Shown: in pieces, positions 24,602 to 57,748 of the stretch
Position numbering within the stretch: position 1 is the stretch's first letter
How the letters are laid out: each line of letters begins with the position of its first letter
Program-made: the position numbers and the translations under genes
Source of the DNA: an uncultured Chloroflexia bacterium
Lineage (GTDB): Bacteria; Chloroflexota; Anaerolineae; B4-G1; SLSP01
DNA: 64,000 nt
Direction: 5' to 3'
Assembly (NCBI GenBank): GCA_963751345.1
Contig: CAVVUS010000013.1
Span: forward strand, 64,001 to 128,000
The notes under the pieces: generated by a model
The model's input: only the letters and a program-made list of their open reading frames with translations
Database searches by the model: none
Told to the model about the DNA's origin: nothing

Positions 24602-24792
24602 ACGACGGCCGTTACCTTCTGGGCTGCTATGCGGTGATGCCCACGCCCTAAGGTCACACCTGGGCAACCCGGAAGGTCCCGCGCCGGGTAGGCAGTCGCG
24701 ATCGAGGCCCTTCGCTAGTATGCCCATGGCCTTCAGGTATAATGTCGCCAAGGGGGCACGCCCCCAAACACCTTGACGGAGGATCACCACCC

Positions 24793-26058
24793 ATGCACAG
24801 GAGCGTAGTCTCAGCTATCCTCATAGCTCTGCTCACGATCATCGCCCTTTCGGCCGGCGGCACGACACTGGCCCAGCCGGTCGACGGCCCAGCCACCATG
24901 ATCGACCCGGATCCCGGTACCAACGGCGGCGTCGCCATCCACTCGACCGGCGCCACGAATCTGCTCACCAACGGCGATATGGACCAGCTCGGCTTCTACT
25001 TCAGGCCAAAGAACCACTACGTCGCCGGGATGTGGTTCGAGTGGTGGGCGGATTACACCGCCATCCCCGAGTACATCGACGGCGGCATCTCGTACCACAA
25101 CCAGTGCTATCCGGTGCCGGTGGATGGCCACTGTCACAACAGCACCGTGGGCGCGCCCAACAATAGCTCGCAGGGCTACATCCGCTGGGGAGGCCTGTTC
25201 GCCGCGGGTATCTACCAGCCGGTGCACAACGTGATACCGTGCACGCTCTACACTTTCGAGATCTACAACCGCAACGACACGGCAAACTACCACGCCAAGG
25301 TCGCCATCGACCGGGCCGGTTGGATCATCACCCAGCCCAGCGGCAATCCTCTGGAGAACTGCCCTCCCGATGGCGCCTCTCCCTGTCCCGATCCCTACGT
25401 GGCAAGCTTCCCGAGTACCACGGTATGGTCTGCCGAGTCCCACCAGCCCGCGCTGACCTGGGCGCCCATCAGCGTGACGGCGGAGGCTGCCGCCACGACC
25501 ATTTCGGTTTGGACCTACGCCCGTCCCGACTCCGGCCCCTCGCAGTCGGCCTACTGGGACTACGGGTCGCTCGTCCAGACGCCATTCCCTGATGCCACGC
25601 TCCCTGCGCCGGCCTCGTGGTATCCGTCGGACTTCATCTCCAACGTCACGACCCAGGTGAACGGCAACAGTGTCACCATCAACTGGGAGACGGGTGCCGC
25701 CGCCCCTACCCAGGTCTGGTACGCCATCTACGAGCCGGCGGCTGTGGTAACGCCCACCGAGTCGATGACCTACACGACTTACCTCCCGATAGTGGCCGCC
25801 TTCCGTCCCCCTACCCCGACCTACATGACACCGATCGACATCACGTCGACGTCGACGCAGCACCAGGTGGTCATCTCCGGACTGCCCACCGACAAAGCGA
25901 TCGTCTTTGCCATCCTCTCACGGCGGCCGGACGGCACGACGTGCGACACGGTGGCCGGTGATCTGATCCAACTGACGCTCTCCACAAACGAGATGATGAC
26001 CCTCCAGTCCTCCAAGGCCGCGACACTGCTCCCGGGTCCTGTCGTGCCGGAGCCCTAG
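24793..26058 (+). CDS. Secreted protein: CBM-like domain + FN3-like domain with YLPxV motif
   Basis: Signal peptide, NLLTNGD start of a beta-sandwich, VTINWET...HQVVISGL; TATAAT at 24738 and GGAGG RBS. Confidence 0.7.
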   Translation: MHRSVVSAILIALLTIIALSAGGTTLAQPVDGPATMIDPDPGTNGGVAIHSTGATNLLTNGDMDQLGFYFRPKNHYVAGMWFEWWADYTAIPEYIDGGISYHNQCYPVPVDGHCHNSTVGAPNNSSQGYIRWGGLFAAGIYQPVHNVIPCTLYTFEIYNRNDTANYHAKVAIDRAGWIITQPSGNPLENCPPDGASPCPDPYVASFPSTTVWSAESHQPALTWAPISVTAEAAATTISVWTYARPDSGPSQSAYWDYGSLVQTPFPDATLPAPASWYPSDFISNVTTQVNGNSVTINWETGAAAPTQVWYAIYEPAAVVTPTESMTYTTYLPIVAAFRPPTPTYMTPIDITSTSTQHQVVISGLPTDKAIVFAILSRRPDGTTCDTVAGDLIQLTLSTNEMMTLQSSKAATLLPGPVVPEP

Positions 26059-26062
26059 CCGT

Positions 26063-28538
26063 GTGATGGGGGGTCGTATCGCCACAGGACGCCTTGCCGG
26101 GGCCGGCCGGTGGCTGGCCCTGGTCGCTCTGTGGTGTTTCCTCGGCCAGGCCCTGGCGGTCGCCGGTGCGACGTCGATGACGGTCGACGAGGGGCTGCAC
26201 GTGGCCAGCGGCTACACGATCTGGCGGACCGGCGACTATCGCCTGATCGAGGAGCATCCGCCGCTGGTGAAACTGTGGCTGGCGATCCCGCTGCTACCGC
26301 TGAAGGACCTGGCTGACCCGACGACGCTCCCCGCCTGGCAGGAGGCAGCTAAACCGACGACGGAAAGCCTGCCGCTGCTTCAGATGGCGCAGCAATTGCT
26401 CTACCCCCACACGCCGGTCGACGGGTGGCTCTTCCCGGCACGGGCGATGGCCTCACTTCTCGGCGTGCTGCTGCTGGCGGCGCTCTACCGGTGGGCACGC
26501 GAGATCGCGGGCACGTCGGGTGCGCTCTTTGCCGTGGCCCTGGCCGCGTTCGATCCCAACTTGCTGGCCCACAGCGCCGTCGCGACCACGGACATGGGTG
26601 CCACAGCACTGATCCTGCTCTCACTGTGGCAGGGCACGCACTTCCTGAAGCGACCCACGTGGCGGTCCGCCCTGGTCACGGGAGCCCTTCTGGGCTTCGC
26701 GCTCGCCACCAAACTGACCGCACTGCTGCTCGGCCCGGCGCTCGGGCTGGCGGGGCTGATCGCACTGGCGGTCTCCCCGCCCAGGCGCCGCAGGCGGCTC
26801 TTCCGCGGCGGCCTCGCCGTGCTGGCGGCGTGCGCCATCGTCTTCTGGGCCATCTACGGCTTCCAAGTGGGCTTTGTGCCGGGGCTCCCCTTCCCGGTCC
26901 CCGCCGCCGCTCACGCCATCCCGATTCTGCGGCTTCTTGCCCACAGCGAGGGAGGACACCAGGCCTTCCTGCTCGGGGAGAACAGCACCTACGGCTGGCC
27001 TGCGTATTTTCCGGTCGCATTCCTGCTCAAGACACCCTATAGCCGGCCTGATCGCGATGGCCGTGGGTGTGGGCGGGCTGCTGGCCGGTGCCGTGCGACG
27101 GAGACAGCTCAGCCTCAATGGGCTTCCGGCGGTGTTGTTTGCCGCGGTCTACGTCGTCGCGTCCATCGCAAGTCCCCTCAACATCGGTTACCGCCACCTC
27201 CTGCCGCTGCTGCCGCTGGGCTACCTGGCGGCGGGCGCTGCCCTGGGCCGCCGAAGCCGGTTCCTCCGCCCGGGCTCCCGGTCGCAGGCCTTCGGCCTGC
27301 TGCCCATCCTGGCGATCGTCTGCGTCCTTGGCCAGGGGAGTGCGACGCTCAGCCGGACGCCGGACCTCATCGCCTTCTTCAATGTCGCCGGCGGCGGCGC
27401 CGATCAGGGGTGGCGCTACTTAGCGGACTCCAACACCGACTGGGGCCAGGGCTACAAGGCACTGGCGCGCTTCCAGAAAGCACAGGGGACCGGCCCGGTG
27501 AAGCTCGCTGCCTTCATCTTCTACGATCCTGCCCTCTACGGCGTCCGCTACACACCACTCCCGCCGCTCGGTGGCGACACGCCCGCACTCTTTCCGTCGC
27601 GCTTCGCGCCACAGCCCGGCGCCTACGTCATCAGCGCCACGCCGCTGGACGGGATCCCCACGGCCGACCCGGAGATGTACGACTGGTTCAGATGGCGCGA
27701 GCCCGACGCGCGTGTAGCCGGTGCGCTCTTCTATTACGACGTTACGCCGCAGGAAGTCGAGACGGCCTGGGTAGCGGAGTGTACACAGCCCATCGCACCC
27801 CTTGACAAGGAGGCCATCGAGGCGGGATTCGGCGCGCCTCCGGACCGCGTGCTGGCGTTCGACTGCACCCGCACTTGGGTCCTCCCCGGCAGTGGGCGCG
27901 ATCCTGGGGCCACCGTGGTTCACGGAGCGTTGCTGGACGACACGTTGCGAGCCCGGCTGCATCTGACCGCTCCCCAGGCGACCGAGCCCTTCCTGGCGCG
28001 GCGGCTCGGCGAGACACAGATCACCTATCGCCAGCGGGCCTATCGCTTCGACCCGGCGTTCGCCATCTTTCGATCCGACAGGGGTGCCCCTGCCCCACCG
28101 CAGGTCACGGCCCGAACGGGTCGGGCCGATGCTTCCCTGGCCGAGGTCAGCCGGTCGCGGGCCGCGTCGCTGCCGGTCGCGCTGGACGGGCCGCTGGCCT
28201 TCCTCGGCGCCAGAGCCTATCCGGAGGGCGAGACGCTGGAGGTGGAGACGTGGTGGCGCGTGACCTCCGCTCCCACGGACCGCCCCTTCTCAGTCATGGG
28301 CCACCTCCTCGCGTCAGACGGCACCTCGCTCGGCGTGGACGACGGGTTGGGCGTGGCGCCCAACGCTTTGCGGGAGGGGGACTTGCTGATCGAGGTGCAC
28401 CGGTTTGCCACACCCCAGGCAGGCTCGACCGTCTGGCTCCGCACCGGAGCCTATTGGCTGGACACGATGGCGCGCTGGCGGGTCAGCGCTCCGGATGGTG
28501 CGGACGCGATCTTCGTGGCGCTAGAGCCGGGCCGGTAG
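26063..28538 (+). CDS. GT-C (ArnT-like) glycosyltransferase, paralog C; frameshift near 27045
   Basis: TVDEGLH, EHPPL, TTDMG, YFPVAFLLKTP, NIGYRHLLP, DSNTDWGQ. Confidence 0.85.
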
Positions 28539-33102: not shown

Positions 33103-34411
33103 CTACTGCACCGGAACCGGCGGCGACACCGGCAGCGGCGAGAGCGGGACCCCGCCGGTGGCGTCTTCCCGCAGCCACTGCTTGCCGTCCACCGAAACAC
33201 CATTGGCCCACACCTCCCAGTGCAGGTGCGAGCCGGTTGAGAGCCCCGTGCTGCCCACCGCCGCAAAAGACTGCCCCCGCTTGACGTAGTCCCCTACCTG
33301 AACGTCGATCCGCGACAAATGCCAATATCCCGTCACCAGCCCCCCGCCGTGGTCCAGCAGGACCGCGTTCCCGCGCGTCGTCAAGGTCTCCGCCAACACG
33401 ACCACGCCGTCGGCGGGCGCCAGGACCGGCAGCCCCGTCGCCGCCGGGTAATCGACGCCACTGTGGTATCCGTCCACCATGCCGCCATAGGAGCGCCGTC
33501 CCCCGTAATCCGCAGAGACCGGCGGCAAGCTCTGCAGCGGGGCGGAGAGCGGCAGGTCCCAGAGGCGCTGCGGCGACCGGATCGCCCGCCACGGGACCAG
33601 ATAGGCCTCCGCGGCGGCCATCACCTCAGGGTCCATCAGTGGCGCCAGCTGCGGCGTAGCTGCGATGACCTGATAGCCGTAGCTCCCGGGCGTCACGTCA
33701 ATCGTCAAGGAGAAGTCGACTTCGTTCGCGCCGGAGACTAACTGCACGTCCAGCGGATAGGTCCCCGGATCGACAAGCGCGGAGACGCCCACCGGCACGT
33801 AAAGCCGGGAATCGCCATCGCGATAGCACGGCTCGCTCTGACCGAGCGCTTCAACGTGGCAAAAGGCCACCCCATCCGTCTCGATCATCAGGAATGCCGT
33901 CTGTCCTCGCACCATCGGCTGGGGCGAGAGCGCCACAGCCTTGATAGGATAGGGCAGACAGGTGTTGACTCCGTGTGTCAAGGAGAGCGGTTGCCCTGCA
34001 GCAAGCGCGACGGCACGCGGGGCACGCCAGAAGGGCACGCCGGCATCGAGCAATACGTCGGGGGAGACCCCGAGCCCCCCGGCGTGCGAGACCACCGAGC
34101 GGATCAGCCGGTCCGAGCCCCGGAAGGCCACGACGCTCGCCAGATCGCCCACGCCTAGGAGTGCCTGAGCCGCCGCCACGTGGGCCGGCGGGAGGCCCGT
34201 TCGATCGAGCCAGCAGCGCATCCACGCCGGATCCGGCGCCAAGCGGGCCGTCCGCGGCCTGCGCCAGAACCGGGCGGGCCGCCGCCAGCGTCCCGAGCAC
34301 CACGAGCACCACCATCAGACATGCCGCAGCTCGCGCGGTCTCTCGACCTCGCCGACGATTCACGCTTGCCCCATTCACTCGCCTGGATATCGACCCGAAC
34401 ACAGCATTCAC
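33103..34411 (-). CDS. M23 family metallopeptidase; frameshift near 34250, start approximate
   Basis: HSGVDY, GNAVLLDHG, YWHLS, GSTGLSTGSHLHWEV; signal peptide in the upstream frame. Confidence 0.85.
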
Positions 34412-34453
34412 TTCACTAGACGCCCTATCTTGGGACCCTTCCGGGCACGTCCG

Positions 34454-34936
34454 CTATATCAGCCGTCGTCCTCGCTGAAATCTCTGGTCCTCTACCCAGC
34501 CATAGAGTGCTCCCAGCGCAGCCGTCGCAAGTGCGGTCAAGGGCAGCAGGATGAGAGAGCCCGTCACGATCGTGCTCACCAGTCCTGCACCGAGTCCCAC
34601 GAAGACACCGGTCCGCAACCACTTTCGCAGGAAAAAGCCGGGCGGAGCCAGGCGGTGTGCGACCACAAAGTGCTCCTCGATGCGGCGCAGCTGCGCCCCC
34701 TGATACTGGCGTTGAGCCTTGGATCCGGGCAGCTCGGGGAACTCCTCCTCCAGGCGCGTCAACGTGTGCTGATAGCCCTGGCAGACCTCACAACTCTCCG
34801 AGAACTCCCGGATGCGGTTCGCCACCTTCAGCACATAGTCGATCCGGTACTTGGTCCACTGCTTGGCTGTCAGAGCTTCCCGCTGCGCCTCGACGGCCGC
34901 CTCCAGCTTCCTGAACCAGATCTCATCCTTGTACAT
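34454..34936 (-). CDS. Hypothetical membrane protein (CxxC, two C-terminal TM helices)
   Basis: 160-aa ORF with protein-like composition; TAGAAT upstream at 34982-34987. Confidence 0.7.
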   Translation of the reverse strand: MYKDEIWFRKLEAAVEAQREALTAKQWTKYRIDYVLKVANRIREFSESCEVCQGYQHTLTRLEEEFPELPGSKAQRQYQGAQLRRIEEHFVVAHRLAPPGFFLRKWLRTGVFVGLGAGLVSTIVTGSLILLPLTALATAALGALYGWVEDQRFQRGRRLI

Positions 34937-35275
34937 GTCAGTCCCCCGCCCAGATGACCCTTCGTGACGTCGACACGAAGGATTCTACCCCTGGGACGGC
35001 GGGAAAGCAATTCGGACGGGGAGTCTGGAGTGCCGGGGAGCTTGCGCCGCAGACGGCGTGTACAGTCCTCGGCACTTGGGAGCACATAACTCGGTCCGAA
35101 GCGAAGTCCGTGTCCTCACCCTGCACTTGCGAGGATTCCGCCCGGTATCGATAGGCCGTCCGCGAAATCCGTGCAATCGTCCCGCTTCTGAGCGGCCTAA
35201 TCCGTGATTCAGACAGACGCAGGCGCCACGCGTCGGGCCACGGGATACGCAAGAACCCCCAAGCACCAGCCGGGC

Positions 35276-37958
35276 CTAAGGATAGAGCGCGTCGACGTCG
35301 ACCTCGGTGCCCCAGATGCGTTCGCCGTCGAGGTCGATCCAACTGCCGGTCTGTACCAGCGTAAGCCGGTCGTCGGGGATGTCCACGAACTGCACCCCGT
35401 TCGCTACAATGGTCGCCGGGCCGTAGGCGGGCTTCTTGATGTACGCCGCCAGGGCCGCAACTTGCGCCCGGGTCACCGTCACGTCCTGCGCCACCACCTG
35501 CGACAGATCCTTGCTCGCGATGCCGAAGTTGGCGTCCTCAACGGAGACTCCGGTGGCCGTGAGCTGGCTGGCCTCGCCGACGGACAGGCCCTTGTCGCCC
35601 AGATTCACCATCCGCACGTCGCTCACCGTGATCTGCGTGCCGCTGACGTCGATGCCGTCAGCCCCGATGTCGTGGAACGACGAGCGCACGATGTCGCCCT
35701 GTGAGAAGTCCGAATCGAACGCGTCTGAGAATGTCGAGGCGAACTCCGTGTCGGCGAAGTGGAAGGTCGTCCGGATCGTGTTCAGCCCGTCCTCGGCTTG
35801 GGTGCCCAGGATGCGGCAGTGGTCGAGCGAGATCGGGCTCTGATAGAACGTGATGCCGCCGGTCAACGTCCACCCCGGCAGCGAGACCGCGACCGTCTTC
35901 TCGACCGTCACGTAAGCCCACGTCGAGGGCGCCCCTGCGTCGATGGACGACGATACCGTGCCACAGATCCTCCGATGGTCCGAGCACGATCGGGGCGTCT
36001 TCGGTGCCGTCGAACTGCAGCGGGCCGCGCGCCAGCAGATAGGCGTCGGGCTCGAACCGGAGGGTCGTGCCCGGAGCGAGTCGCAGACCGTAGCCCTCCG
36101 GGAGGATCAGGCTGCCGCTCACGGCGTGGGTACCCGCCGGCATCGTGAGCATCCGCGCTGCCGTGTCATCTACCTTCAGGTAGGGGTGCGCGGCCAGCGC
36201 CTGATCGAGTGTGGGCGCAGGAGGAAGGGCGCCCTGCACGATCGAGGGATACGACGCCATCACCGGGCGGGTCACGGTCTCCGTGAGCCCCCACACACGG
36301 GTCACCAGCTGGACTGAGTCCGGATCCACCTCAGGGGGCAGCACCACCGACGTACGCAGGCGCGCATAAGGCATGAACTCCGCATCGGGCGACAGCGCCC
36401 TGAGAACCAGATCCTCGCCGGCGTCCTCGACGCCAACCACGTTTCCGGCGGCGCCGGGCGTGGCCCAGTCGGCTGCGGCCGGATACCAATCCGGCCCAAC
36501 CTGCACGCCGTCGATCTGCACGGGAAGCCCCAGCAAGTTCCCGACGTCGAGCACGAGCGTGTCTGTCGGCACGTCGGCCGGCCGGTAAGCATAGACCATC
36601 TGGGGCGGGTTGAGCCAGTCGCGGAGCGAGGCCGCCCGCTCGGCAAGCGCGTCCCAGGGCGCGTCGAGCACCCCGCCCCCGTCGGGCGCGGTCACGTCGC
36701 CAAACTCGGGAAGCAGGCTCGCGCGCACCGCCTCGAGGCCACCACCGACGTCGGCTTGGAGTGCCGCAAGGTACGCCGGATCCGTGAACTCCGCCAGCGC
36801 CTCGACGTAGGCGCGGCGCAACCGGGCGTCCCCATACGCCAGAAGCTCCCGCCGGCCCGCGAGCTTCGTCACGTCCGCCACGGCGCCATCCTCCAGGGCT
36901 TGCGCATCAAAGGCGATGGGTTCGAGCCGCGTGGTGATGGGGTTGTAGTAGAAGCGCAGATTGTGCCAATCGAGCGCGTGGTTCGCCCCCCAGAGGTCGG
37001 CGAGCGCCCAGAAGCGCGCCATCCGGTCGATATCGAAGACCTCGGAGGCCGGCAACTGCCCCGCCCACCAGGCGCGCAGCTTGCCGACAGCCGCATCGCG
37101 GGCCGCCGAAAGCGTCGGATCGGCATCGACGCCGCCCGAGTCGAATTCGTCGATCACGTGAAACTCGGTGATACCCGGCGGCGTGACGAAGTCGTTTTCG
37201 TAGGCTGCCCAGGTCTCCCACAGCAGATCCTCGTTGTAGCGGATGATGACGCTCTCGCGGCGCCGCTGCGACTCCAAGAGCTCCTTGGCAAACCCCTCCT
37301 CCACGGCATAGACGCCCATCGTCTTCCCGTTCTGGACGACGTGCGCGAAGCTGTATCCCACCGTGAGGATATCCTCGCGCCGCAGGGCTTGCATAAAGGC
37401 CCACTCATTGGCGTACGTACGCGTCGAGGGGTCCTGGATCGAAAAGACGCGCATCCCCATCACGGCGTCGCCACCCTGTACCTCAATACGATAGGACCAC
37501 TTGTCGTGCGCGAAATGGTCACCCCAGTCGCCCTTCAGGCGAAGCTGTACCTGCACGGGGTCGCCATCGCCGACGCGCACCGTGGCAGGGACGAAGTCTG
37601 CGTTGGTGGCCAGCAGGATCCAGTTCTTGAGCGCGTCCTCGCGCTTGGCCTCGATCTTGGCAAAGTCATCTGGCGCAATGTCGATATAGAGCGTAGGAAG
37701 GGTGTCCCCGGCCTCCGGCGAAGTCGGCGTGGCGGTCGGCAGCGGCACAGGCGTCGGCGCAAGGGCGGTGGCGGTCGCTGGGGCCTGAGCTGCGGCCATC
37801 GAGTCGGGGATCTCATTGGCGTGCCCCGCGCGGGCCAGAAGCCAGCCGCCGGCGAAAGCCAGCACAATCAGCGTGACCCACCCCACACGCTGCCCGCGTC
37901 CGGCGGCATGTGCACCGCCCATCGCGTGTCCTGGACCACCGTCAAGCTGCGTACCCAT
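35276..37958 (-). CDS. CotH-family kinase with N-terminal TM anchor and C-terminal right-handed beta-helix; frameshift near 35940
   Basis: LRLKGDWGDH, KWSYRIE, GVYAVEE, HALDWHNLRFYYNP...EPIAFD; beta-helix EDGLN, SDAFDSDFS, DGIDVSG, DKGLSVGE; GGAGG RBS. Confidence 0.85.
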
Positions 37959-37971
37959 TTCGCGGGCCTCC

Positions 37972-38735
37972 CTACAGATCCGGCGTGGCCATCACGCCGT
38001 GGACGTACTTCGAGAATCGATCGACGCGCGCCGGGAAACAGGAGACCGCTGCGCTCAGACGCCGCATCGAGGCCGGCGTCACCGGCGCCTTGAGTTCGAC
38101 GATGACCACGTCCTCCGTCCACACAGGGCGCCCGAGATTCGGCAGGCTCGATACCCGCTGATCGTAGGTCGCCAGGCCCAGTGTCGACGGTCAACCGCAG
38201 CTCGCCGTCCGGGGTTGCGTAGTATGCGCGCCGGTAGCTGTTGATGAGGATCGGCACCGGAAATCGCGAGAGCCAGTCGATCCCCGCACCATTGAGGGCA
38301 GCACGCAGATCCTGATCAAAGGTGGCCCAGGATGCTGACGCAAGATCAAAACACGGAGGTCAGCGGCACGATCTCCTTCCACCCGCCGCTCCCCTGCCTG
38401 CGCTTCAGCTCGAGCTGGGCCTGCTCGATGGCGCCCAGATCCGGGCCGTACCAGCGCAAGCGCAGCTTGGCGCGCTCGGCGATGCCCGCCAGGTTGGCGT
38501 TCAGCCCCGCGTAGTCCGCGGTGTCGAAGTAGAGGTTGTTCACCCGGCGTGCAGGATAGGTGCGACGCCAATGCACGGGATGCAGCCGCACCCACGCGTC
38601 GACCTCGCCGAGCAGCACCGCCGGCACGGGAATCTTCACCTCGATCCGGGGCGACGTCGTCAGAATGTCCACGTGCCTAACTGCAGCGTGGCCTGTGGTG
38701 GAAGACGCCGTGAGCTTACCGCGAATGGAGCTCAT
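37972..38735 (-). CDS. VTC-domain (polyphosphate polymerase-like, TTM fold) protein; frameshifted
   Basis: RIEVK, VNNLYFDT, RAKLRLRWYG, QLELKRR, YRRAYY, LRLTVD, IVELK, FSKY across frames. Confidence 0.88.
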
Positions 38736-38924
38736 CGGCCCTCATACCACACCCGACCTGACTTCCGGGCCGACCCGCGGACCGTAGATCCGCCCGGAAC
38801 GGATAGGAATGCCGCTGCGCCACCGGTTCGCGCCGGATCTGGCCCCAAGATCTGCCTGGGCGTGATCCGGCGCCGTGCTCGAGCCGGCCACCAGAGGCGC
38901 GGGCATCCGCTCGGATCGCGCACG

Positions 38925-40457
38925 TCATGGCTGCGCTCCGGCGTCCACGGGCACCCTGACGATCTCGTCGAGGCCCCATAGTCGCGTCGTCAGCACAAGG
39001 CTGCCCAGCCCCGGATCGACCGTGGCAGGCAGGGCCGCCAACGGCACGGTGACCCCGACCTCGACGGGATCGGCACCCACCTGCGCTGCCAGCACGACGG
39101 CACCGGCCCCATCGACCAGGCCATCACCGGTCGCCCACGCGGGATCCAGGGTCAGGCCGCCCTGCTCCCCAATATCGAGCCCCATGACCTCCACCGGAAA
39201 GGGAAGCACCGCGCGAAGCTGCAGGCGAATCGCGCCGATCTCCTCAGATGTCGTGGCGACAAGGGTACGCGACGGCTGTATCTCGGCCAGAATGGCCGAC
39301 CGGCGCTTCGCCAGTTCGGCTTCCAGGGCACCCGGCGCGCCGCCCAACGCCACGTAGAGGGCGTCCATCTCAGCTTGAGGGATCAGCGAATCCGGGTATC
39401 CCGGCTGAGCATCCACGGCCAGCCAACGTGCGGTGGCCTTCTGGATGTCGGGATCGTCCGTGAAGCTCGGTGGCAGGGGGGTATTCAGGTCGTAGCGCCA
39501 TCCGGTGCTGGCCGGATGCAGCCCGCCGGTGGCCGGATCGTAGATGAAGCCAAGAGCCCGCCAGTCCGGCCGCAGCACGCCATACCAGAGCGCCGCTGCC
39601 GCCACGAGCTGCCCCATCTCATCCGGATCCAGCACCTCGGTCGGCGCCATCTCTCCCCGCTCCAGCGCCGCGACAAGCTCGGCGGCGCGCGCGGGCGCAG
39701 TTCCGGTCACCCCTCCGGTTGCGTCGAGTGGCGTCACCGTCATCGCCGCGTAGGCAAAGCTCGCCTGCGGCGCGGCGAGCCCAGCCGCGGGCAGCCGCCT
39801 CGCGTCAAACGACACCAGGACGCTCCCGGGCGAGACCTCCGCGCCCGCTGACACCGTCTCCGCCATCGATGCCTCCATAGCGTAGATGCCCCAGCGGCTC
39901 CCGTTCACCTGGACTTGGACGAACCGCCGTTCAGGCACCGGGAGCCCTGCAGCATCGAGCGATCGCAGGAATCCCATAGTCAGGACACTACCGGCATCGG
40001 CCGGTCGAAACGTCGCGTGTCGGACGCCCAGGAGCCCTCGGCCCTCCGTCGAAGTCACCTCAAAGGGAAGGGGCCCGGATGGCACGCCGGGCCAGCGAGA
40101 GGGGCACAGCGTCGCGCCGCCCGAGTCCCCGGACATCGCGACGGTCGCGGCTACGCAGTCCGCCGGGGTCACCGCGCTCTCTCCCGCCGGCAGGCGATCC
40201 TGCGCAGCGCGCCACTGCTGGTAGGCTGTGAAGTCGACGCTGACCTCAACCGTGGGCATGTCGCTGCGGGCCCGCCACGCAGCCAGTGCCAGGCGTGGAT
40301 GCCGGAATGCCAGATCGAGCGAGGACGCCACACGGCGTGGCTGGCCCACCATGCCTGCAGCAGCCGCCAGCGTGAGAACCACGATGACGCCACCGACCCA
40401 CCACCCCCTCCACCTGGCAGCCGGCTTCTTTGCCGCCTCCGCTCTTGTGATGCGCAC
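38925..40457 (-). CDS. Degenerate CotH-like membrane-anchored protein (probable pseudokinase)
   Basis: N-terminal TM; FVQVQVNGSRWGIYAME; collinear similarity to the 35276-37958 product but catalytic-type motifs are replaced. Confidence 0.7.
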   Translation of the reverse strand: MRITRAEAAKKPAARWRGWWVGGVIVVLTLAAAAGMVGQPRRVASSLDLAFRHPRLALAAWRARSDMPTVEVSVDFTAYQQWRAAQDRLPAGESAVTPADCVAATVAMSGDSGGATLCPSRWPGVPSGPLPFEVTSTEGRGLLGVRHATFRPADAGSVLTMGFLRSLDAAGLPVPERRFVQVQVNGSRWGIYAMEASMAETVSAGAEVSPGSVLVSFDARRLPAAGLAAPQASFAYAAMTVTPLDATGGVTGTAPARAAELVAALERGEMAPTEVLDPDEMGQLVAAAALWYGVLRPDWRALGFIYDPATGGLHPASTGWRYDLNTPLPPSFTDDPDIQKATARWLAVDAQPGYPDSLIPQAEMDALYVALGGAPGALEAELAKRRSAILAEIQPSRTLVATTSEEIGAIRLQLRAVLPFPVEVMGLDIGEQGGLTLDPAWATGDGLVDGAGAVVLAAQVGADPVEVGVTVPLAALPATVDPGLGSLVLTTRLWGLDEIVRVPVDAGAQP

Positions 40458-41130
40458 TCAGTCCCCCAGCACGTGCTCCTGCTGCAGCAGGCTGATCTCC
40501 GCCGCAGCAAAGGACGTCTTGAGGTCGGCCACGAGGTCGTTCGCCGTCTGTGGGTCAGGGCAAGCGATGTAATAGGTAAGCTGGAGCGTGCCGTCGCGGC
40601 TGTCGAGGCGGCGGAAGTCGATCACGTCGACGTGGTTGAGCAGACAGGCGTTCACCTGGCTGAGCGAGGCCGAGCCATCGTCATTGACCAGCACGTTGAG
40701 ATAGAGGTTGTGAGCGCTGCGTCTTGCGCCCCAACGCCATGCGCACGGCCATGTAGGCCATCAACACGGCGACACCGACCACGGTGACCCAGCGCTGCTC
40801 GGCGCCCACGCCAAGCCCGATGGCAATGGCGATGAAGAGGAACATCAGCTCCTCGGGTTCCTTGATCGCCGTCCTGAAGCGCACGATGGAGAGCGCACCG
40901 ACCAACCCCAGCGAGAGGGCAAGCGACGACTTCACGATCGTGATGACGATCCCCGTGGTCACCGTGAGAATCGGCATCAGCGCCGCGAGCTTCCGCCGGT
41001 TCGTGATCGCCTGGCCAAAGGCCTGATAGTACCATGCCACGACCAGGCTCAAGGCCAGCCCCAACAGCATATCGACGGCGAACGTCGCCAGGGAGGCGGG
41101 CGGAAAAGCAATCAACTGATCTATAGGCAT
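40458..41130 (-). CDS. DUF4956 membrane protein; frameshift near 40715
   Basis: VKSSLALSLGLVGALSIVRFRTAIKEPEELMFLFIAIAIGLG; ACT-like tail in ORF 40458-40694. Confidence 0.92.
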
Positions 41131-41176
41131 AGTCTACCGTCCCGGAGAATCTGAGATGAGAGCGAGTAAGACCGGT

Positions 41177-41185
41177 ATTATAGCA
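41177..41185 (-). promoter_or_regulatory. Extended -10 promoter (TGcTATAAT) for the DUF4956-CotH-VTC-CotH unit
   Basis: Consensus TGnTATAAT 46 nt upstream of the DUF4956 ATG. Confidence 0.6.
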
Positions 41186-41331
41186 CGCCCGCCCGGTGCG
41201 ACATACAGAATCGGGCCACGCCGCGGAGGCTCTTCACCTTTGTCGGCGCCCGGCCGACACTCCTCAGGAACGGCCCTCACGGGTTCGTTCCATGCGGATC
41301 TATGATCCGCCCACGGCAATGCACGACACAC

Positions 41332-43775
41332 CTAGCGCAGGGAGCGCAGCAAGCAGGTGACGCGCAGGCCACGCTGCGACGGGTTGAGCGCGCCCGGCGT
41401 GACCGCCCGGGCGACGCCGTAGCATTGCGCGTCGCCGGAGGCGCAGGCCGGTGGATCGACGACCCAGTCGGCCAGCGCGTCGTTGCTCCCTGTGCCGGTG
41501 AAGACTGCGCCGTCGTCGGCACCCAGGCGGCTGAACGGATCGTCGAAGGTCACGCCGTCACGGAGGACACCAAACGTGGCCGGGGTGACGGTGCGCCCCT
41601 CGGCAACAAAGTCGACCCCCACGTCGTCGTCGAACGCCGAGGTGGGCCCGGGCGCGAGCAGCACGACGTCGTCGTTGGCCGTTCCAATGCCGAAGCCCGG
41701 GTCGGTCGTCGCGTCGAGGGCGCCGTTCCCCACGTAGAGCACCATCACGCCATCACGCGCATCCAGGTCGTCAGTGGGGAAGGACGCTGCGTTGAGCGGG
41801 CTCTCGGTTGCCACAATCAGGATGACGGTCCCGCAGGGCACAGAGGCCAGCGTGTCCGACGCGGGCAGGATCAGCGACCCCTCGGTGGTATCCGCCCTGG
41901 TGGCGTTGTCGGTGATGCGCCATCCGCGCAAGTCCTGCCCGCCCGGCGCACGAACCAGGAGCTCCAGCCAGTCTCCCTCCAGAGGTCGCCGGCCGAGCGA
42001 GGGGTAGCGGGTAGCATCGTCATTGATCCATAGCTCGTTGATGATCACGTCGTCCGGTGCCGGCGTGTCTCGAGACACGCGGGGCCGAAAGGAGACCGTG
42101 AGCGACAATGGGCTCGACAGCGTGAGGCTGATCTCACTCACGCCGGGCGCGATATCGATGGCCGGCGACGACATCCACTCACCGACCTCGTAGCCATCCT
42201 CGGGCACCGCTACGACGTCCACCGCCGTCTGGCGACTGTACCATCCGTCCCACGCCGTTCCATCCGGTGCCACGTGCGTGCCGTTGACGTAGAGAGCTCC
42301 CGCGTCGGGCGGCGTGACCGCGAGATGCAGGGACGTGTCAATGGACGCTTCCTCGGCGACAACAAGAGGCCGCTCGTCGAGAAAGACTGAAAACGCCCGG
42401 ACCTCGTCGTCCCACGCCGGCACGCCGGGCCACCGGCCGCGCTCCTGCCCGTAGGCCTGTGAGAGCGGGCCGGAGAACGCAGCAAGGTGGCGTCCCACCG
42501 AGGCGGGCAGCAGGACCGTGTTCAGCAGATCGGCCAACCGCGCCGTGTAGCGCTGCCGGTAAGCCGGATTGGCCATCAGTGCCTCGTGAACCGTCGTCAG
42601 GTCCGGCGCCTGAGCGACCTCACCGGCCGACCCACCCTCGAACGCCCAGAACCAGCGCCCGCCCTGCGGCTGGACGGCGATGATGCTGCCCGCGGGCAGA
42701 TCGAAGAAGTGCGAGAGGATGGCGAAGTCGATCAAGTTCTCGATGTCGACGCGGGCCACAGCCTCGGCGTAGGCTGCGTCGCCAGAGAGATCACTGCTCC
42801 CCAGCCACTCCAACAGCGCCTTCCAGTCGGCTTTCGAGCCATCGCGGGCATCGCCCTCCTGCACGACGTCGGCCTCGCCGATGCCAAGATCGTCCGCCAG
42901 ATAGAAGCGGTCGACGCGCTCGGTCAGCCGGTAGATGCCCCACGAGCTGCCGTTCAGAAAGAGCCAAACGAAGCGTCCCTGTGCCGCGGGCAGGTCGAGG
43001 TCGCGGCAAAGCTCCGCCACCACCTGATCGCGCATCGGCGGACCACGCCATGGCACCCGTCGCGGCGTGGTCCCCCGCCTGGAGGAGCAGCCGCTTGTAG
43101 CTCTGTGCGTCGGCAGCCTGGTCGGGAGGATTCGGGAAGAGCGGCGCGTCGAGCCTGGCCTGTCCGTACTCCTGGCGCAAGTAGAGTCGCAGCGTCTGCT
43201 TCGGTGCGTCGAGGGGCTCCCGCCCATCGATCCGCACGCCGGCGGGCACGGCCCACGTCGCATCGCCGTCGAAGCCGGTGATGTACACAGGCCGCTCCCA
43301 TGCCTGCCCGCGCCACGAAGGGTTGGCGAGCAGCCCTCCCTCCTCACCCCAGAGGTCGGCAGGTTCGGCCATGATGGAGATGATGGGCAGCGCAGGCTGG
43401 TAGACCGACGGCATATGAGGCGCTAACGACCGGGCCTGCGACGCCACCATCGACCTCGATGGCACGCAGGACATGCACGCCAGGGGTAGCGCTATCCAGC
43501 CGTATCGGGCGGGCATAAGGGGTGCCGACGGTCGCCGACGGCGTGCTTCCATCGAGCGTGGTGATCACGCGTCCCGTGGGCTCCGAGGGGCGCAGCACCA
43601 CCGCGACGTCGCGTGCGTAGACACCGGGCGGCGGAGACAACGTGACCGCGCCTCCCGCGGTGCCCGCGTCCGAACCCACGGCCTGGCGCGAAAGACCCTC
43701 TGCGGCGAAGAGAAGCACGGCGACAGCCGCCACCAGCCCCCCGAGCCCCACCGCTCTTCGAATCGTGGAGCTCAT
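41332..43775 (-). CDS. FN3-associated + CotH + lamin-tail-like multidomain secreted protein; frameshifted
   Basis: SPPPGVY, TTLDGSTP, WERPVYI, GVRIDG, PKQTLRLY, MRDQ, LFLNGSSWGIYRLTERVD, VIINELW...DWLEL...DLRGWRITD. Confidence 0.82.
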
Positions 43776-43863
43776 CGCGCGCCAACCCACGCGGGCTCAC
43801 ACCCCATAGTCCGGGGCGTCACGCATCTCAACTCCAATCGAGCCCACCGACCGGGTCGCGCCC

Positions 43864-43996
43864 ACCCGCGCTGGCCTTGTCCGCCGTAGGGACAGGGCGG
43901 CATTCACCCGTGCTGGCCTCTTCCGCCGTAGAGACGGCGCCCCGCTCACCCGCGATGGCCTTTTCCGCCGTAGAGACGGGGCGGCGCCCCGTCTTC
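43864..43996. repeat. About three tandem 41-42 bp units (CACCCGnGnTGGCCT..TCCGCCGTAGrGAC)
   Basis: Repeated CCGCCGTAGAGACGG / CACCCGCG.TGGCCT blocks in an intergenic region. Confidence 0.7.
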
Positions 43997-44053
43997 TGCC
44001 TGCAGCACACCCGGCGCGGGGCCGCACGCCGCCCTGCCCCATAGTCAGGGCCA

Positions 44054-45382
44054 TCATCGTACCGCCAACGTCTGGAGGACAACGCGACTGTCGGCTAGCG
44101 GGTTCCCCGAGCTGTCGTGCGGCACCAGCCGGTCGCCGCTCTCCAGCAAATAGAGGCCCACCGCGACCTCGTAGTCGCCCCTGGCCATGTCAGCAGGTAG
44201 CGCGAGGATATGCTCATCCCGGACATACTCGCCCGGCGCCCACCCGTCGGTCGGATAGAAGCCGTAGACCGGCACGCTGTCATCCTGGGTCACCAGCCCG
44301 CCGGCGCCGTCGAGGACGTGAACAAAGACGCGGTAGCTCTCAACGACCGGTCTGTCGGCCGACCAGAGTAGCACTACGCGAAAGGATGAACCAACCGCGA
44401 CCCGCTGCGGCATGTCATAGCCCAGGAGCTGGATCTCGTCGGGGGCACCGCCCCCGCCCGGTCCCGAGAAGACGTAGCGGACAGTGTGATCCATCGGAAT
44501 TGGCGTCGCACTGGCATCGGGCGGGTGCACCACCTCGGTGAGGGAAAGGGCATCCTGCGTCTGTCCGCCTTGCGCCTGGTACGGCACGAGCCTGCCGCTG
44601 GGCTCCGCCAACTCGACGGTAATCCGGTACGTGCCCTGGGGCAGATCGTCCGGCGGCGCCAGGACATAGCGCGCCGTCAGACGGGCGTCGGCCAGCGGGG
44701 CGATGCCGGATGGCGCAAGGCGGGCCTCGCTCTGTGCCCAGGTCTTGCCTGTGGCGGCCTCGACCAGCCGGACTGTGACGCGCAACGGTGCGGCGTCGCG
44801 TCCCGGCACGTCATCCCAGAAGAGGGTCAGATCAACCGGCTCGCCGGGCGTCACCCGCGGGCCGGCGACCCGAAACGCGCGCAGCACGACCGCCTCGCTG
44901 AGGAACTGCCCGGTCATCTCTGTGGTGGCACCGGCATCGAAAGGCGAGGGCGTGTAGGCAAAGAGGGTCGCTGTGCCTCCCGGCAGCCCGGGCGCGGGCC
45001 ATGCGGTCAGCGGGCGGTACCGATCCACAAACCACGGCTGCGCGATCACACCATCCCAGGCCACGCCACCCGTCGCAAGGACGTAGTCGGGACGGGCCGT
45101 GTCGAGCGCGGCGAGCACGTCGTACGCGTCGACCGTCACCGGCAGCGCCACCGCATCGCGATCGGCGAAGCAGCGCTCGACGCCGGCGGGCACGGCCACG
45201 CTCTCCTGGGGTAGCGCCTGGGCGTCGAGCCAGGCAGCGACCGCGCCAAAGTCCGGGGTGCCCGAGCAACCGGGTGAGCAGCTCGTCGCACCCAGCACCA
45301 GCAACGAGGCGCCGAGCAAGGCCACGACGGCCCGCACGAGGAGCGGGCGGATCAGGGCTCGAAGGGGTACAAAGGTGTTCAC
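44054..45382 (-). CDS. Lipoprotein-like protein with two Ig-like domains resembling GT-C C-termini
   Basis: Hydrophobic signal ending GATSC; RPDYV; LLGYD...YRVFVHVLD...PTDGWAPGEYVRDEH...GDYEVAVGLY. GTG start 7 nt after TAGAAT. Confidence 0.72.
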   Translation of the reverse strand: MNTFVPLRALIRPLLVRAVVALLGASLLVLGATSCSPGCSGTPDFGAVAAWLDAQALPQESVAVPAGVERCFADRDAVALPVTVDAYDVLAALDTARPDYVLATGGVAWDGVIAQPWFVDRYRPLTAWPAPGLPGGTATLFAYTPSPFDAGATTEMTGQFLSEAVVLRAFRVAGPRVTPGEPVDLTLFWDDVPGRDAAPLRVTVRLVEAATGKTWAQSEARLAPSGIAPLADARLTARYVLAPPDDLPQGTYRITVELAEPSGRLVPYQAQGGQTQDALSLTEVVHPPDASATPIPMDHTVRYVFSGPGGGGAPDEIQLLGYDMPQRVAVGSSFRVVLLWSADRPVVESYRVFVHVLDGAGGLVTQDDSVPVYGFYPTDGWAPGEYVRDEHILALPADMARGDYEVAVGLYLLESGDRLVPHDSSGNPLADSRVVLQTLAVR

Positions 45383-45471
45383 ACGGCGCATTCTACCGCT
45401 CCAGGGCATTCCGAGCAAGACTCCGCCCCCGCCGAACCCGACGCCTCAGGTTCCAGGCACGGCAGAGCGTC

Positions 45472-45503
45472 GGTGCCGGGGACTTTCCGCAGTCCCCGGC
45501 ACC
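45472..45503. repeat. REP-like palindrome GGTGCCGGGGACT-ttccgc-AGTCCCCGGCACC
   Basis: Matches 8607-8638. Confidence 0.8.
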
Positions 45504-45777
45504 TGGAGGCCCAGCCCCGTTCGCCCGCTGGACTCGTTACCGGGGGACAGGCAACAGCACCCCTTTCAGATGACTTCGCCCCCGTTCTGAAATGTTAGTA
45601 TGTGAGAGGCAGGTGAGAGAGGACTTGAGGCGAGGGAAGGGCTAAGCTAGCAGCACTGGGCACAGCCTGAGGTCGAGGGAGCTGTCTTCGGCCGCGGGCC
45701 GGGCCTGGCTGGCACACCAGAGGTTGCCCCAGGCGGAGCAACTCATCCTCAGACAGCTGCTCGCACGCGTCGATTTC

Positions 45778-46032
45778 TCAGAGAAGCAGATCCATGTCGT
45801 CGACAGCGAGATCCCACGTTCGGTGCATGGCAATCGTCGCACCGGGCGTACCATTCTTGAAGGCCACGCGGATAGCGCACCAGGTTTGGTCGACCTCACC
45901 GATCACGTTCTCCGGGATGGAGATCGTCTAAGCACCCGGAAGACTGCGTTTGTCGGTCGGATGCTCGCTCGATCCACCGTCCCAGAATGGTTCCAGGATC
46001 GGTTCTGCCTCGTTGATGGGTACGATGGTCAT
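45778..46032 (-). pseudogene. Truncated gene remnant with internal TAG
   Basis: GAGGAG RBS, then MTIVPINEAEPILEPFWDGG..., TAG at 45928-45930, protein-like continuation to TGA. Confidence 0.45.
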
Positions 46033-46041
46033 CGTCACTCC

Positions 46042-46587
46042 TCAGTTTGTCAGGATCCCTGTTGGCTTCCCGTCCAGGCTCACCGAATTGGCCTCCCGCC
46101 AATACGTCCGGAGGCCTTCCTCTCCCTGATCCGCCAACCAACTCGTCAACTCGTCGCGATCCCCAACGAAGTCATACAAGGGCACACCTGAGCCGCACGA
46201 TGTCTGCACGAGGTCAACGTGCATATCGATGATCTGGCGTGGACCCGGAAGCTGAGGGAAGCGTGAGATCAGATCGGCCCAATCGTCATCCTGTGCATGG
46301 ACCGATCGGGCGTGCCCATACAAACGCAAGATAAGTGGGTCACCCTCGAATGCGCAGAACATCAGTGTCATCCGTTCGTTCTCGATCAAATGCGCCGCGG
46401 TCTCGTTTCCGCTGCCGGTTAGGTTTAGCCAAGCTACGCGGTTGTCGCCCAGGACCCGTAACGTATCCAGCCCCTTCGGTGATACGTTGACCCTCCCGTC
46501 TACAGCGGCTGTTCCCACGAAGTAGATCCTCTGTCGTCCGATAAATGTCTTCATCTCGTCGTTCATTGCTGCGTATCGTTGACCCAT
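46042..46587 (-). CDS. Pyridoxamine 5'-phosphate oxidase family protein
   Basis: FVGTA, VNVSPKG, TGSGNETAAH, MFCAFEG, QTSCG; GGAGG RBS. Confidence 0.9.
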   Translation of the reverse strand: MGQRYAAMNDEMKTFIGRQRIYFVGTAAVDGRVNVSPKGLDTLRVLGDNRVAWLNLTGSGNETAAHLIENERMTLMFCAFEGDPLILRLYGHARSVHAQDDDWADLISRFPQLPGPRQIIDMHVDLVQTSCGSGVPLYDFVGDRDELTSWLADQGEEGLRTYWREANSVSLDGKPTGILTN

Positions 46588-46905
46588 CGCTATTACCTCC
46601 AAGTGATCGTCGCTGTTCATATCTGGCGACCCAAATATAGCTTCGTTCTCGATGCAGTCCAAGCTGCTGGTGCTACCGACCTCTTCCCGGCGCGGTGGGC
46701 GTGTTCCAACTTCGGGGCGACACCAGCGGTTGAGGCAATGCGAATCCTGTGAGGATTCTGTAAGAGCCAGGTTCCCGATCAGTACTAAAGGACTGGGCAA
46801 TAAGGTGACTCATTTTGACTTCTAGCGAGGGGGTTTTACACTCAATCATGATTTGTTGTGAGGCAGTCTTGGCAGAGCCCCAATGGACAAATCAAGGAGG
46901 TTCTC

Positions 46906-48086
46906 ATGACGAGTACTTCTTCTCGGAGGAACGGGCGTCTTTGGGAAAAGTGCAGCAGCTCTCCTTGCCCGTGAGAAAGAGATCACCGAGATAGCGGTTG
47001 CTAGCAGGCATCTCGATACCGCACAACGAACCGCATCAAATATCGGTGACAAAGCGCGTGCAGTGTGCGTTGACATCAAAGATCTGACCAAGCTTTCGTC
47101 TATCGCAAGTGATTACAGTATCATCGTTAATGCTGCCGGACCCACGTCTGAAACACAGTTGCCCGCGATCCGGGCGGCTATTGAAGCGGGTGTCCACTAC
47201 TGCGATCTGGGTATTCTCGGGCGAACTGCAGAAAAAGCACTCAAACTGAACTCACAGGCGCAGGCGAAAGGTGTGACCGCCATCATCGGTACCGGCTGGT
47301 GTGCTATTCGGAGTCTGATGACAGTGCACGCCGCACACCAACTTGACGAAATCGACGAGTTGTTCGCCTGCTTTCAATTCGACTACTCCCAAGGAGGATT
47401 CTTCTCGCCTGGAGAATTTCCTCGCCAGGGTGCACAAGCACGGTCGCGTAGAAACCAGCGCTGTAGATATCATGGAAAGTGCACGCGGTCCCGTCAAGAT
47501 ATATCGAGCAGGAAGATGGCTCTCTATCGAACCCATCGAAGGTCCAATGGAAATCTTTCATCCGGCGGGAACCATGATCACCGCCTATCCTTTGGATTCC
47601 TCGGAGGCGGTAACCTTACCTGACTACCTGCCTGGGGTGAGAAACATATCCATCTTGATGAGCTTCGTCCCGCCTCCTCTTAACGAGCTCATATTGCAGC
47701 ATGGCCACCGGATGGTGAAAGGTGAAATTGATCCGGCCAGTGCAATCGTGGCATTCTATGAAGCAGCTTTGGCGGACAAGGAATGCTGGCTCGCAACTCC
47801 ACACGGTTATCCTGGCGGGTGGTGGATGTGGGCTGGTGTGACAGGGCGGAAGAACGGGCGGAAAGCACGATATCTGTGCTGGCCGGCAATGTTTCTGGAT
47901 TGGACAAGCGTTCCCCTCATAATCGTAGCTCTGCGTATTCTAAGGGGGGAAGTATCTATGCACGGAGTCCTGCCACCTGAGGCGTGTTTTGAGCTTGGAT
48001 CTTTCTTCGAGGAGGTAGCTAAGTATGTGGGCGAAGAACACCGTGGGAAACCCCTGTTGATCGAGCGCTTTGACTGGCTGGAATAG
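46906..48086 (+). CDS. Saccharopine dehydrogenase-like oxidoreductase; frameshifted
   Basis: AAGGAGG RBS; [11 protein letters not shown] Rossmann motif, VNAAGP, GVHYCD, GVLPPEA. Confidence 0.82.
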
Positions 48087-57712: not shown

Positions 57713-57748
57713 ATCGTCCCTCTATGCTTTCCTACCTGACTTAATCAT

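Follow-up and report, generated by a model that had tools for sequence, protein, structure and literature searches.

A VTC/DUF4956/CotH gene cassette in an uncultured Chloroflexota genome and its possible part in phosphoryl transfer at the outer cell face

Genes for VTC-domain polyphosphate (polyP) polymerases, DUF4956 membrane proteins and CotH kinase-family proteins have been noticed side by side before. In streptococci, clostridia and bifidobacteria, cotH, a poly-phosphate polymerase gene, DUF4956 and DUF4832 figure as accessory genes contiguous with pel operons, and a regulatory kinase role has been proposed (Whitfield et al., bioRxiv 10.1101/768473). The three corresponding proteins of Streptococcus intermedius, SIR_1592-1594, have been described from models in a preprint that suggests that polyP may stay cytoplasmic and leaves their function open (10.1101/2024.04.20.589940). 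In the NELoc-2 locus of Clostridium perfringens, VTC-domain genes are each followed by the gene of a membrane protein of 222-226 amino acids (aa), then by a CotH gene and, further on, by a glycosyltransferase gene (Lepp et al. 2010, PMC2879425). Here we describe a cassette of this kind in an uncultured Chloroflexia bacterium (class Anaerolineae in the GTDB lineage). The window analysed comprises 64,000 nucleotides (nt), positions 64,001 to 128,000 of contig CAVVUS010000013.1 (C13) in the metagenome-assembled genome (MAG) GCA_963751345.1, which measures 5.4 Mb in 49 contigs and is 93% complete. Six co-oriented genes occupy 35276-45418 of its minus strand: a lipoprotein-like gene (X), a CotH gene with a lamin-tail-like domain (CotH-LTD), DUF4956, a CotH-like gene, VTC and a CotH/beta-helix gene.

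We read these genes, tentatively and at somewhat less than even confidence, as an Anaerolineae version of a widespread VTC/DUF4956/CotH cassette that would be intact in the organism and used for phosphoryl transfer at the outer face of the cell. Beyond the cytoplasm bacteria have no ATP to draw on, which raises the question of how phosphoryl transfer could be run there, and the cassette sets a Vtc4-like enzyme with a predicted complete active site beside kinase-fold proteins that are probably exported. In yeast Vtc4, the triphosphate and Mn2+ are held by the residues K200, R264, R266, K281, Y359, R361, E426, S457 and K458, on which polyP in cells depends; Vtc2 and Vtc3, which are inactive, have another residue in place of K458 (10.1101/2023.01.27.525886). 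Bacillus CotH uses ATP and acts on spore-coat proteins, and the B. subtilis protein is inactivated by D228Q or D251A (PMC7821199).

The VTC enzyme and the conservation of the cassette

Against a cut-off of 23 bits, Pfam VTC (PF09359) scores 36.9 and 18.8 bits on pieces of the window gene and, in a match that spans positions 2-231 of 235, 83.5 bits on the intact ortholog of a same-genus relative, G002, whose intact orthologs stood in wherever a whole protein was needed (about 70-96% identity to the window pieces by tblastn). With a profile of nine sequences, the match to the catalytic domain of Vtc4 (3g3q) is full length and has an E value of 5.1e-11. Counted along this profile-to-3g3q alignment, the nine yeast residues listed above fall, in the same order, on K22, R80, R82, K99, Y155, R157, E201, S229 and K230; all of them are invariant in a 57-sequence VTC alignment and all are present across the window's own three VTC pieces. 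These matches support the prediction of a Vtc4-type tunnel enzyme with a complete active site, and the sequence-only reading, an earlier interpretation of this DNA made from its letters, had rightly placed the protein in the Vtc4-like polymerase family: the nine residues of synthesis stand on invariant columns, the lysine equivalent to K458 included. The protein consists of the VTC domain only, with neither an SPX domain nor a three-helix channel domain (Pfam, G002 ortholog), and shows no hydrophobic segment in its hydropathy profile, in line with the solubility claimed for it. A search for fused forms among longer proteins, with VTC as the query, found none at E up to 1e-5, which is weak evidence. 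Because the genome already encodes PPK1 and two PPK2 enzymes, the VTC enzyme would be an additional, specialised maker of polyP.

Gene order and orientation are kept in related Anaerolineae, same-genus MAGs (tblastn). Among the 41 nearest genomes, several of which are incomplete so that absences are not proven, VTC and DUF4956 occur together in 22, each occurs alone in one (G020 and G011, one each) and 17 have neither. Of the 24 relatives with at least one of the two genes, 22 thus have both, which supports the two as near-obligate partners. In 14 control genomes both genes are present in the same three (B. thetaiotaomicron, C. glutamicum and M. acetivorans), and CotH in those three and in B. 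subtilis. Linkage was counted in a scan of species-representative genomes with a DUF4956 profile, which gave 390 confirmed relatives and 79 retained loci, whose open reading frames (ORFs) were searched with hidden Markov models derived from the genus; 56 of the 79 loci have at least 5 kb downstream of DUF4956. VTC lies within 5 kb downstream of DUF4956 on the same strand in 48 of these 56, a CotH-type ORF starts between -200 and +300 nt from the DUF4956 end in 50, and both follow DUF4956 in 44; as the 79 loci are kin chosen via DUF4956, the counts describe linkage and not independent events. VTC is missing from eight of the 56 loci (L068, L070, L073, L076, L077, L084, L090 and L094). Closer relatives have the full six-gene set, in two gene orders, and more distant ones a three-gene core of DUF4956, a CotH protein of about 550 aa with a conserved loop, and VTC. 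The claim that the trio recurs in other bacteria is borne out by the 44 loci, the three control genomes and the published pel-accessory sets; breadth beyond the phylum rests on the control genomes and the literature.

Gene boundaries were set by tblastn with intact same-genus orthologs (Table 1). The sequence-only reading had described the five genes other than X as co-oriented, with DUF4956 abutting the next gene and VTC ending 13 nt before the start of the following kinase gene. Its observation is partly confirmed: places, strand and spacing hold, as does, by hydropathy, the topology, but frame breaks that it had not mentioned interrupt four of the five genes in the sequence as it stands. 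The DUF4956 stop (40458-40460) directly adjoins the GTG start (40455-40457) of the CotH-like gene, and 13 nt separate the VTC stop (37972-37974) from the ATG (37956-37958) of the CotH/beta-helix gene. In G002 the CotH-like and VTC genes overlap, without the 229-nt stretch that the window has at 38689-38917 (MAFFT, window against G002); this stretch alters the apparent VTC start, and blastn found no second copy of it in the genome, matching only the stretch itself. A scan of 34000-46500 gave no promoter-like and six terminator-like sites, the level of shuffled sequences, and no Rfam family or tRNA was found in the window.

Table 1. Features of the locus and of the glycosyltransferase array (window positions; insertions are relative to G002)
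Feature	Position	Strand	Remarks
Lipoprotein-like gene X	44054..45418	-	ORF of ~450 aa, no Pfam family
CotH-LTD gene	43790/43775 to 41332	-	~820 aa; three frames; Pfam CotH
Single-base insertions	~43398, ~43039		in CotH-LTD gene
DUF4956 membrane protein gene	41130 to 40458	-	223 aa; Pfam DUF4956; one frame change
Single-base insertion	~40715		in DUF4956 gene
CotH-like gene	40457 to 38925	-	510 aa; the sole intact one among the five named genes
Stretch absent from G002 locus	38689..38917	no strand	~229 nt; between CotH-like stop and conserved VTC part
VTC-domain gene	38735 to 37972	-	~240 aa; three frames; Pfam VTC
Single-base insertions	~38352, ~38179		in VTC gene
CotH/beta-helix gene	37958 to 35276	-	~893 aa; one frame change
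Single-base insertion	~35944		in CotH/beta-helix gene
GT4 gene and GT-C array	8603-28535	+	PMT_2 three times, YfhO-like once; several large ORFs without family

DUF4956 and the CotH-type proteins

Pfam DUF4956 scores 50.1 bits on the window gene, and the protein's N-terminal part is 96% identical to that of G002 (tblastn). In the AlphaFold2 (AF2) model of the G002 protein, with a predicted local distance difference test (pLDDT) of 79, five helices are joined to a C-terminal domain of beta-alpha-beta-beta-alpha-beta order. Structure searches (Foldseek, VIA-align) matched only this C-terminal domain, to ACT-type folds with Z of about 10, and MgtC C-terminal domains are among the matches (2lqj, at Foldseek rank 2, and 7qa5); the DUF4956 profile gave just a weak ACT match against PDB sequences. 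The hhalign alignment of a 68-protein DUF4956 profile to 11 proteins of the MgtC family from the same genomes runs over 203 columns (probability 83.8%, E 7.9e-6). Pfam MgtC (PF02308) matches the DUF4956 gene of another relative, G025 (E 7.6e-5, 24.6 bits, positions 2-118 of 121), and the membrane part of the fusion protein P0013 (E 6.8e-4, 20.4 bits), both below the cut-off of 31.4, and has no match in the G002 ortholog at E up to 0.1. A protein atlas gives DUF4956 an MgtC cluster score of 0.78, which is a lead only. Separate true MgtC genes are also present in the genome. DUF4956 is thus most likely related, at a distance, to MgtC, whose two-part build it shares, and not to the Vtc1-type channel domain, to which searches that barely tested the helical part gave no match. 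The sequence-only reading had made it the translocating subunit; gene linkage is what is left to argue for that role, because the protein is MgtC-like and shows no detectable likeness to the channel domain.

The invariant residues of DUF4956 include R45, R84, R86, K90, E93 and E94, and the family has an invariant motif of its own, VRFRTAIKEPEEL; by the positive-inside rule these residues probably lie on cytoplasmic loops. Among 120 longer DUF4956 proteins listed, 79 carry an N-terminal PF06439 (lectin/hydrolase-like) domain, which precedes the membrane part, or leaves room for that, in the three fusion proteins scanned; the one examined starts with a signal peptide. An orientation with the N-terminus outside and the C-terminus inside fits with this. 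These fusions of a PF06439 domain (3-keto-disaccharide hydrolase/DUF1080-like) with DUF4956, namely P0002, P0020 and 77 more of the 120 listed, have about 450 aa and come mostly from Anaerolineae. P0013 joins DUF4956 to VTC and has kept the VTC residues, and P0001 is a DUF4956-CotH/beta-helix fusion that resembles a read-through of adjacent genes; each is a single sequence. The DUF4956 family is very large, 6187 clusters matching it at E up to 0.001 among the 1.84 billion representatives of a library. Complex prediction for VTC with DUF4956 (57- and 68-row alignments) scored 0.00 in two runs in which the controls were not folded, and so speaks neither for nor against binding.

The three CotH-type proteins have one N-terminal hydrophobic segment each (13-31, 20-38 and 24-42; hydropathy), as the sequence-only reading had it, and such anchors fit with export. 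From the N-terminus, CotH-LTD consists of the anchor, a CHB_HEX_C/Fn3-associated region, the CotH kinase-family domain, an InlB B-repeat-like region and the lamin-tail-like domain. Pfam CotH (PF08757) scores 67.9 bits on the window copy and 77.9 on the intact G002 ortholog, and this is the only paralog above the cut-off. At the place where 15-17 of 42 relatives have W-D-x-D, which we take to be the canonical CotH motif, the window copy reads FEGGS. LTD is the top match in seven of eight C-terminal fragments, at 17-28.5 bits (17 in the window) and always below the cut-off of 34.3.

For the CotH-like protein, Pfam CotH stays at 14.5 bits in the ortholog, below the cut-off of 23.8. Its AF2 model (510 aa; pLDDT 86.3, predicted template modelling score (pTM) 0.85) has as its top two Foldseek matches in the PDB the B. 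cereus CotH structures 5jda and 5jd9 (E 1.3e-11, probability 1.00, TM 0.63 on the target), the next match being at E 1.6e-3, and hhalign pairs the protein with the kinase-like domain of the beta-helix paralog at 100% probability (E 3e-76). The CotH/beta-helix protein is built of the anchor, a Pro/Thr-rich linker, a CotH-family kinase-like domain and a C-terminal probable right-handed beta-helix. No Pfam CotH match was found in its window pieces (E up to 0.01) or its ortholog (E up to 0.1), and a five-sequence profile found no CotH in the PDB and the LTD paralog at just 21% probability; a 53-sequence profile matches CotH 5jd9 at E 3.2e-4. Pfam Beta_helix reaches 24.1 bits, against a cut-off of 25.9, on a window piece and 34 bits in the related P0001. 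The sequence-only reading had spoken of three CotH-family proteins, one with an LTD and one with a beta-helix. On profile and model evidence all three do appear to share the CotH fold or family, but only CotH-LTD passes the Pfam CotH cut-off, and the LTD and beta-helix matches are present but below their cut-offs in the window.

The window beta-helix paralog retains D321, H327, N333, E346 and D351. In its family, D321 is kept in 52 of 53 sequences, N333 and E346 in 51 each, and position 351 is Asp in 34 and Asn in 18; by extrapolation, D351 may answer to D251 of B. subtilis CotH. The column aligned to the catalytic Asp of the Bacillus protein ('NFDGF'), which is the CotH Asp five residues before a loop Asn that aligns with N333, has low posterior confidence and holds His in 33 sequences (the window's among them), Gln in five, Asp in four, Glu in four and Gly in three. 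At the catalytic-loop places, the CotH-like paralog shows Ala/Thr, Pro, Thr, a residue that varies, and Gly. Judged by these alignments, the beta-helix paralog, which keeps the conserved catalytic-loop set, is probably the catalyst, whereas its two companions are probably degenerate.

Intactness of the genes and weighing of explanations

As the sequence stands, only the CotH-like gene is intact among the five named, and the other four carry six frame breaks (two each in CotH-LTD and VTC, one each in DUF4956 and CotH/beta-helix; GC3 frame plot and tblastn), all of them single-base insertions relative to G002 (Table 1). The breaks could be genuine and the locus a decaying pseudogene cluster in this organism, an explanation that we regard as very improbable. 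The same density of breaks runs along the whole contig: when 55 G002 genes were followed along about 100 kb of syntenic sequence (C13 ~52,000-145,000), 23 had at least one collinear frame change, with 34 changes in total or about one per 2.0 kb of aligned coding sequence, and 29 of the 34 fall outside the locus by this strict count (a looser count of changes gave 40). The six insertions come with no other damage, and every VTC catalytic codon is retained. An independent check used contigs of four public metagenome runs that lie on the locus (share of the locus covered by the runs at most 0.13, depth 2.4-4.6, 90-99% alike to the window). Contigs of run X1 have one base fewer at 43397, in CotH-LTD, and at 38180, in VTC; a contig of run X3 has one fewer at 40715, in DUF4956; and contigs of both have one fewer at 35942 and 35947, in CotH/beta-helix. 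These omitted bases, at four of the six break sites, are the sole indels in the well-matching contigs, and one further indel occurs in a 151-letter record fitting over just 33 letters. Sites 38352 and 43039 have no row from the run contigs and are possibly uncovered, which is not evidence of agreement with the window. Because the rate of breaks in the locus is that of the whole contig, and because four of the six insertions are missing from the run contigs, we conclude that the breaks are assembly errors and not gene decay, and that the genes are in all probability intact in the organism. Pseudogene decay was rejected on these grounds. The host is uncultured and its assembly error-rich; the C13 assembly abounds in single-base frame breaks, and ORF-based readings of this genome need care.

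We infer every step of the mechanism that follows, polyP export and its use outside included. At the membrane's inner face, the soluble Vtc4-like enzyme would take phosphate from ATP and polymerise it, in cooperation with the MgtC-like five-helix DUF4956, whose invariant Arg/Arg/Lys residues and ACT-like domain would face the cytoplasm. The polyP product, or phosphoryl groups thereof, would get to the outer face, where membrane-anchored CotH-fold proteins would use them on a surface glycan or glycoprotein. The beta-helix paralog would be the likely catalyst there; the CotH-like and LTD paralogs and X would more likely be scaffolds or substrate-binding parts. The sequence-only reading, in which VTC makes polyP, DUF4956 translocates it and CotH transfers the phosphate, is partly supported, being compatible with the active site predicted from Vtc4, with the close linkage of the genes and with the topology predicted for their products, and it is weakened by the MgtC-like partner and by the two degenerate CotH paralogs. 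Our own reading has the same points to answer, and others. To our knowledge, MgtC is a regulatory membrane protein and not a channel, so that the MgtC-like nature of DUF4956 weakens the export mechanism. The channel domain of Vtc1/3/4 did not turn up as a match of DUF4956 in the profile search against PDB sequences, in Foldseek or in VIA-align, by which the helical part was barely tested. By alignment, the catalytic-loop residues that one CotH paralog keeps are missing from the other two, and in that one the replacement of the catalytic Asp by His holds for only 33 of 53 sequences in a low-confidence part of the alignment. The fusions P0013 and P0001 could be read-through artefacts, and the linkage counts come, as said, from kin. 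A more specific form of our reading makes the locus a split bacterial counterpart of the VTC complex: a Vtc4-like polymerase docked on an MgtC-like oligomer would pass polyP out, and the beta-helix CotH with its His loop would phosphorylate or polyphosphorylate a surface glycan with polyP and not ATP, with the beta-helix binding the glycan and the two degenerate paralogs and the lipoprotein holding the substrate. That all of this holds together we consider unlikely.

A competing explanation leaves polyP in the cytoplasm, as the authors of the S. intermedius preprint suggest may be the case. DUF4956 would then be no conduit, acting instead as an MgtC-like anchor or ACT ligand-sensing regulator of VTC, and the CotH proteins would be independent of polyP, using another donor or serving as non-catalytic binders or adhesins, with the linkage explained by one envelope programme. 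The full-length alignment of DUF4956 with the MgtC family, the two Pfam MgtC matches, the likeness of the C-terminal domain to the MgtC C-domain and ACT folds, and the loss of catalytic-loop residues in two CotH paralogs all speak in its favour. Against it, PPK1 and two PPK2 genes are already at hand for cytoplasmic polyP, a CotH-type gene comes right after DUF4956 in 50 of the 56 loci, and the frequent fusion of DUF4956 to an exported PF06439 domain points to a module that communicates with the outside; we judge this explanation somewhat unlikely. It is also conceivable, and in our view quite improbable, that the VTC-domain protein is a triphosphate or nucleotide hydrolase or converter and no polymerase, its product being for instance a signal sensed by the ACT-like domain of DUF4956, in which case polyP would have no role. 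Basic residues lining the tunnel are generally common to the triphosphate-tunnel superfamily, and no measured activity of any bacterial member was found in the literature searched; however, the Pfam VTC match covers nearly the whole ortholog, the Vtc4 match is full length, and the lysine whose loss marks the inactive Vtc2 and Vtc3 is kept. If polyP export by the cassette is true, it would be a third bacterial polyP route besides PPK1 and PPK2 and a new supply of energy or donor for surface modification; the split-VTC arrangement, if true, would be a way to power kinase chemistry beyond the cytoplasm.

Surroundings of the cassette and comparison with known systems

Lipoprotein X is a sixth conserved member of the set: its orthologs lie inside the cassette in all five relatives with a match (G021, G002, G017, G010 and G003) and in many of the 79 loci. 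X, presumably exported, has no Pfam family match and has an N-terminal hydrophobic segment followed by LGATSC, as in lipoproteins; its start is uncertain, since the likeness to G002 continues upstream as far as 45586. At the C-terminal end lies a module of about 120 aa (residues 327-454; window 44057-44440) that the genome has at more than 20 other places, one of them at 11570-11929 of the window, inside the GT-C array; the module is common to the C-termini of GT-C glycosyltransferases. Weak Wzt_C and MalQ_N matches suggest that the module might be a glycan-binding beta-sandwich. Among 12 X-like ORFs in related loci, four are GT-C enzymes, two have sub-threshold Wzt_C matches and six have no family.

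The sequence-only reading had proposed that the nearby GT-C array supplies the substrate. In the window the array is at least about 7 kb from the cassette and on the opposite strand, with Ogt, peptidase (MA-type, M20, M23) and SRAP genes between, and this part of the proposal suffers from the distance, the strand and the housekeeping genes; in its favour are the X module and the GT-C genes that lie 2-9 kb from the cassette in four related loci, two of which have them as its immediate neighbours. The link between cassette and array is weak, and a glycan target for the cassette is plausible. At least one gene of the array, PMT_2 at 10054-10959, which continues in 10772-12388, seems to be divided by a frame break. 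Immediately downstream of the cassette, 34454-34936 (minus strand) encodes a 160-aa protein without family and with a hydrophobic C-terminal part, which is found at the same place in G002 and G003 and about 6 kb away in G010. Elsewhere in the window, 46001-48000 has a G+C content of 0.54, against about 0.66 in the rest, and holds a PNPOx-like gene (46042-46800) with no tRNA or Rfam match; a carboxylate-reductase-like gene (AMP-binding and NAD_binding_4, 988 aa) lies beside a polysaccharide pyruvyl transferase gene at 53490-57721 (minus strand), and a GH32 gene at 61690-63105.

The core trio has been published before, as pel-accessory genes that are uncharacterised, and the present cassette is a variant of that described set. 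As the sequence-only reading had supposed, no mechanistic characterisation was found in the literature searched, which covers few subscription journals; two further papers (PMC13454231 and PMC10434189) have DUF4956 in expression tables only and nothing on its function. The likeness to the pel-accessory cassette extends to the same three families being adjacent and co-oriented, to a predicted exported CotH and a cytoplasmic VTC-like protein, and to a membrane protein with several helices and a C-terminal ACT-type domain. Unlike that cassette, ours has three CotH paralogs (lamin-tail-like, plain and beta-helix) and lipoprotein X, and its host belongs to the Chloroflexota and not to the Firmicutes or Actinobacteria; no Pel or DUF4832 family was found in the 32 window ORFs scanned (E up to 1e-4) or among the cassette proteins. 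Judging by their size and predicted location, the small membrane proteins of NELoc-2 may be DUF4956 proteins; they are annotated there as 'tubulin/FtsZ GTPase', and organism and gene neighbourhood differ from ours.

With the yeast VTC complex (Vtc4/Vtc3/Vtc1; 3g3q, 7ytj, 8i6v) the cassette shares a tunnel domain with all nine residues and a dedicated membrane partner encoded beside it. Here, however, the catalytic domain is a separate soluble protein without SPX, and the partner is a five-helix MgtC-like protein with an ACT-like domain, whereas yeast has the three-helix Vtc1-type domain and a pentameric channel; the coupling of synthesis to transit is demonstrated in yeast and would be no more than presumed here. 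DUF4956 in turn resembles the MgtC/SapB family in its N-terminal helical membrane domain, its C-terminal ACT-like domain and the full-length profile alignment, and differs from it in scoring below the Pfam MgtC cut-off, in having its own motif and in its tie to VTC and CotH genes. Bacillus CotH (5jd9/5jda) has the fold in common with our three proteins, by the model's top PDB matches for the CotH-like paralog, by Pfam for the LTD paralog and by the 5jd9 profile match for the beta-helix paralog. In contrast to it, the proteins of the cassette have extra domains, would be anchored outside the cytoplasm, where ATP is not expected, and deviate in the catalytic loop, with His where the alignment puts the catalytic Asp, or with the whole set of loop residues lost. 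What this instance adds to the described systems is a probable division of labour among three CotH paralogs, a candidate His-for-Asp catalytic loop and a MgtC-like partner for a Vtc4-like enzyme.

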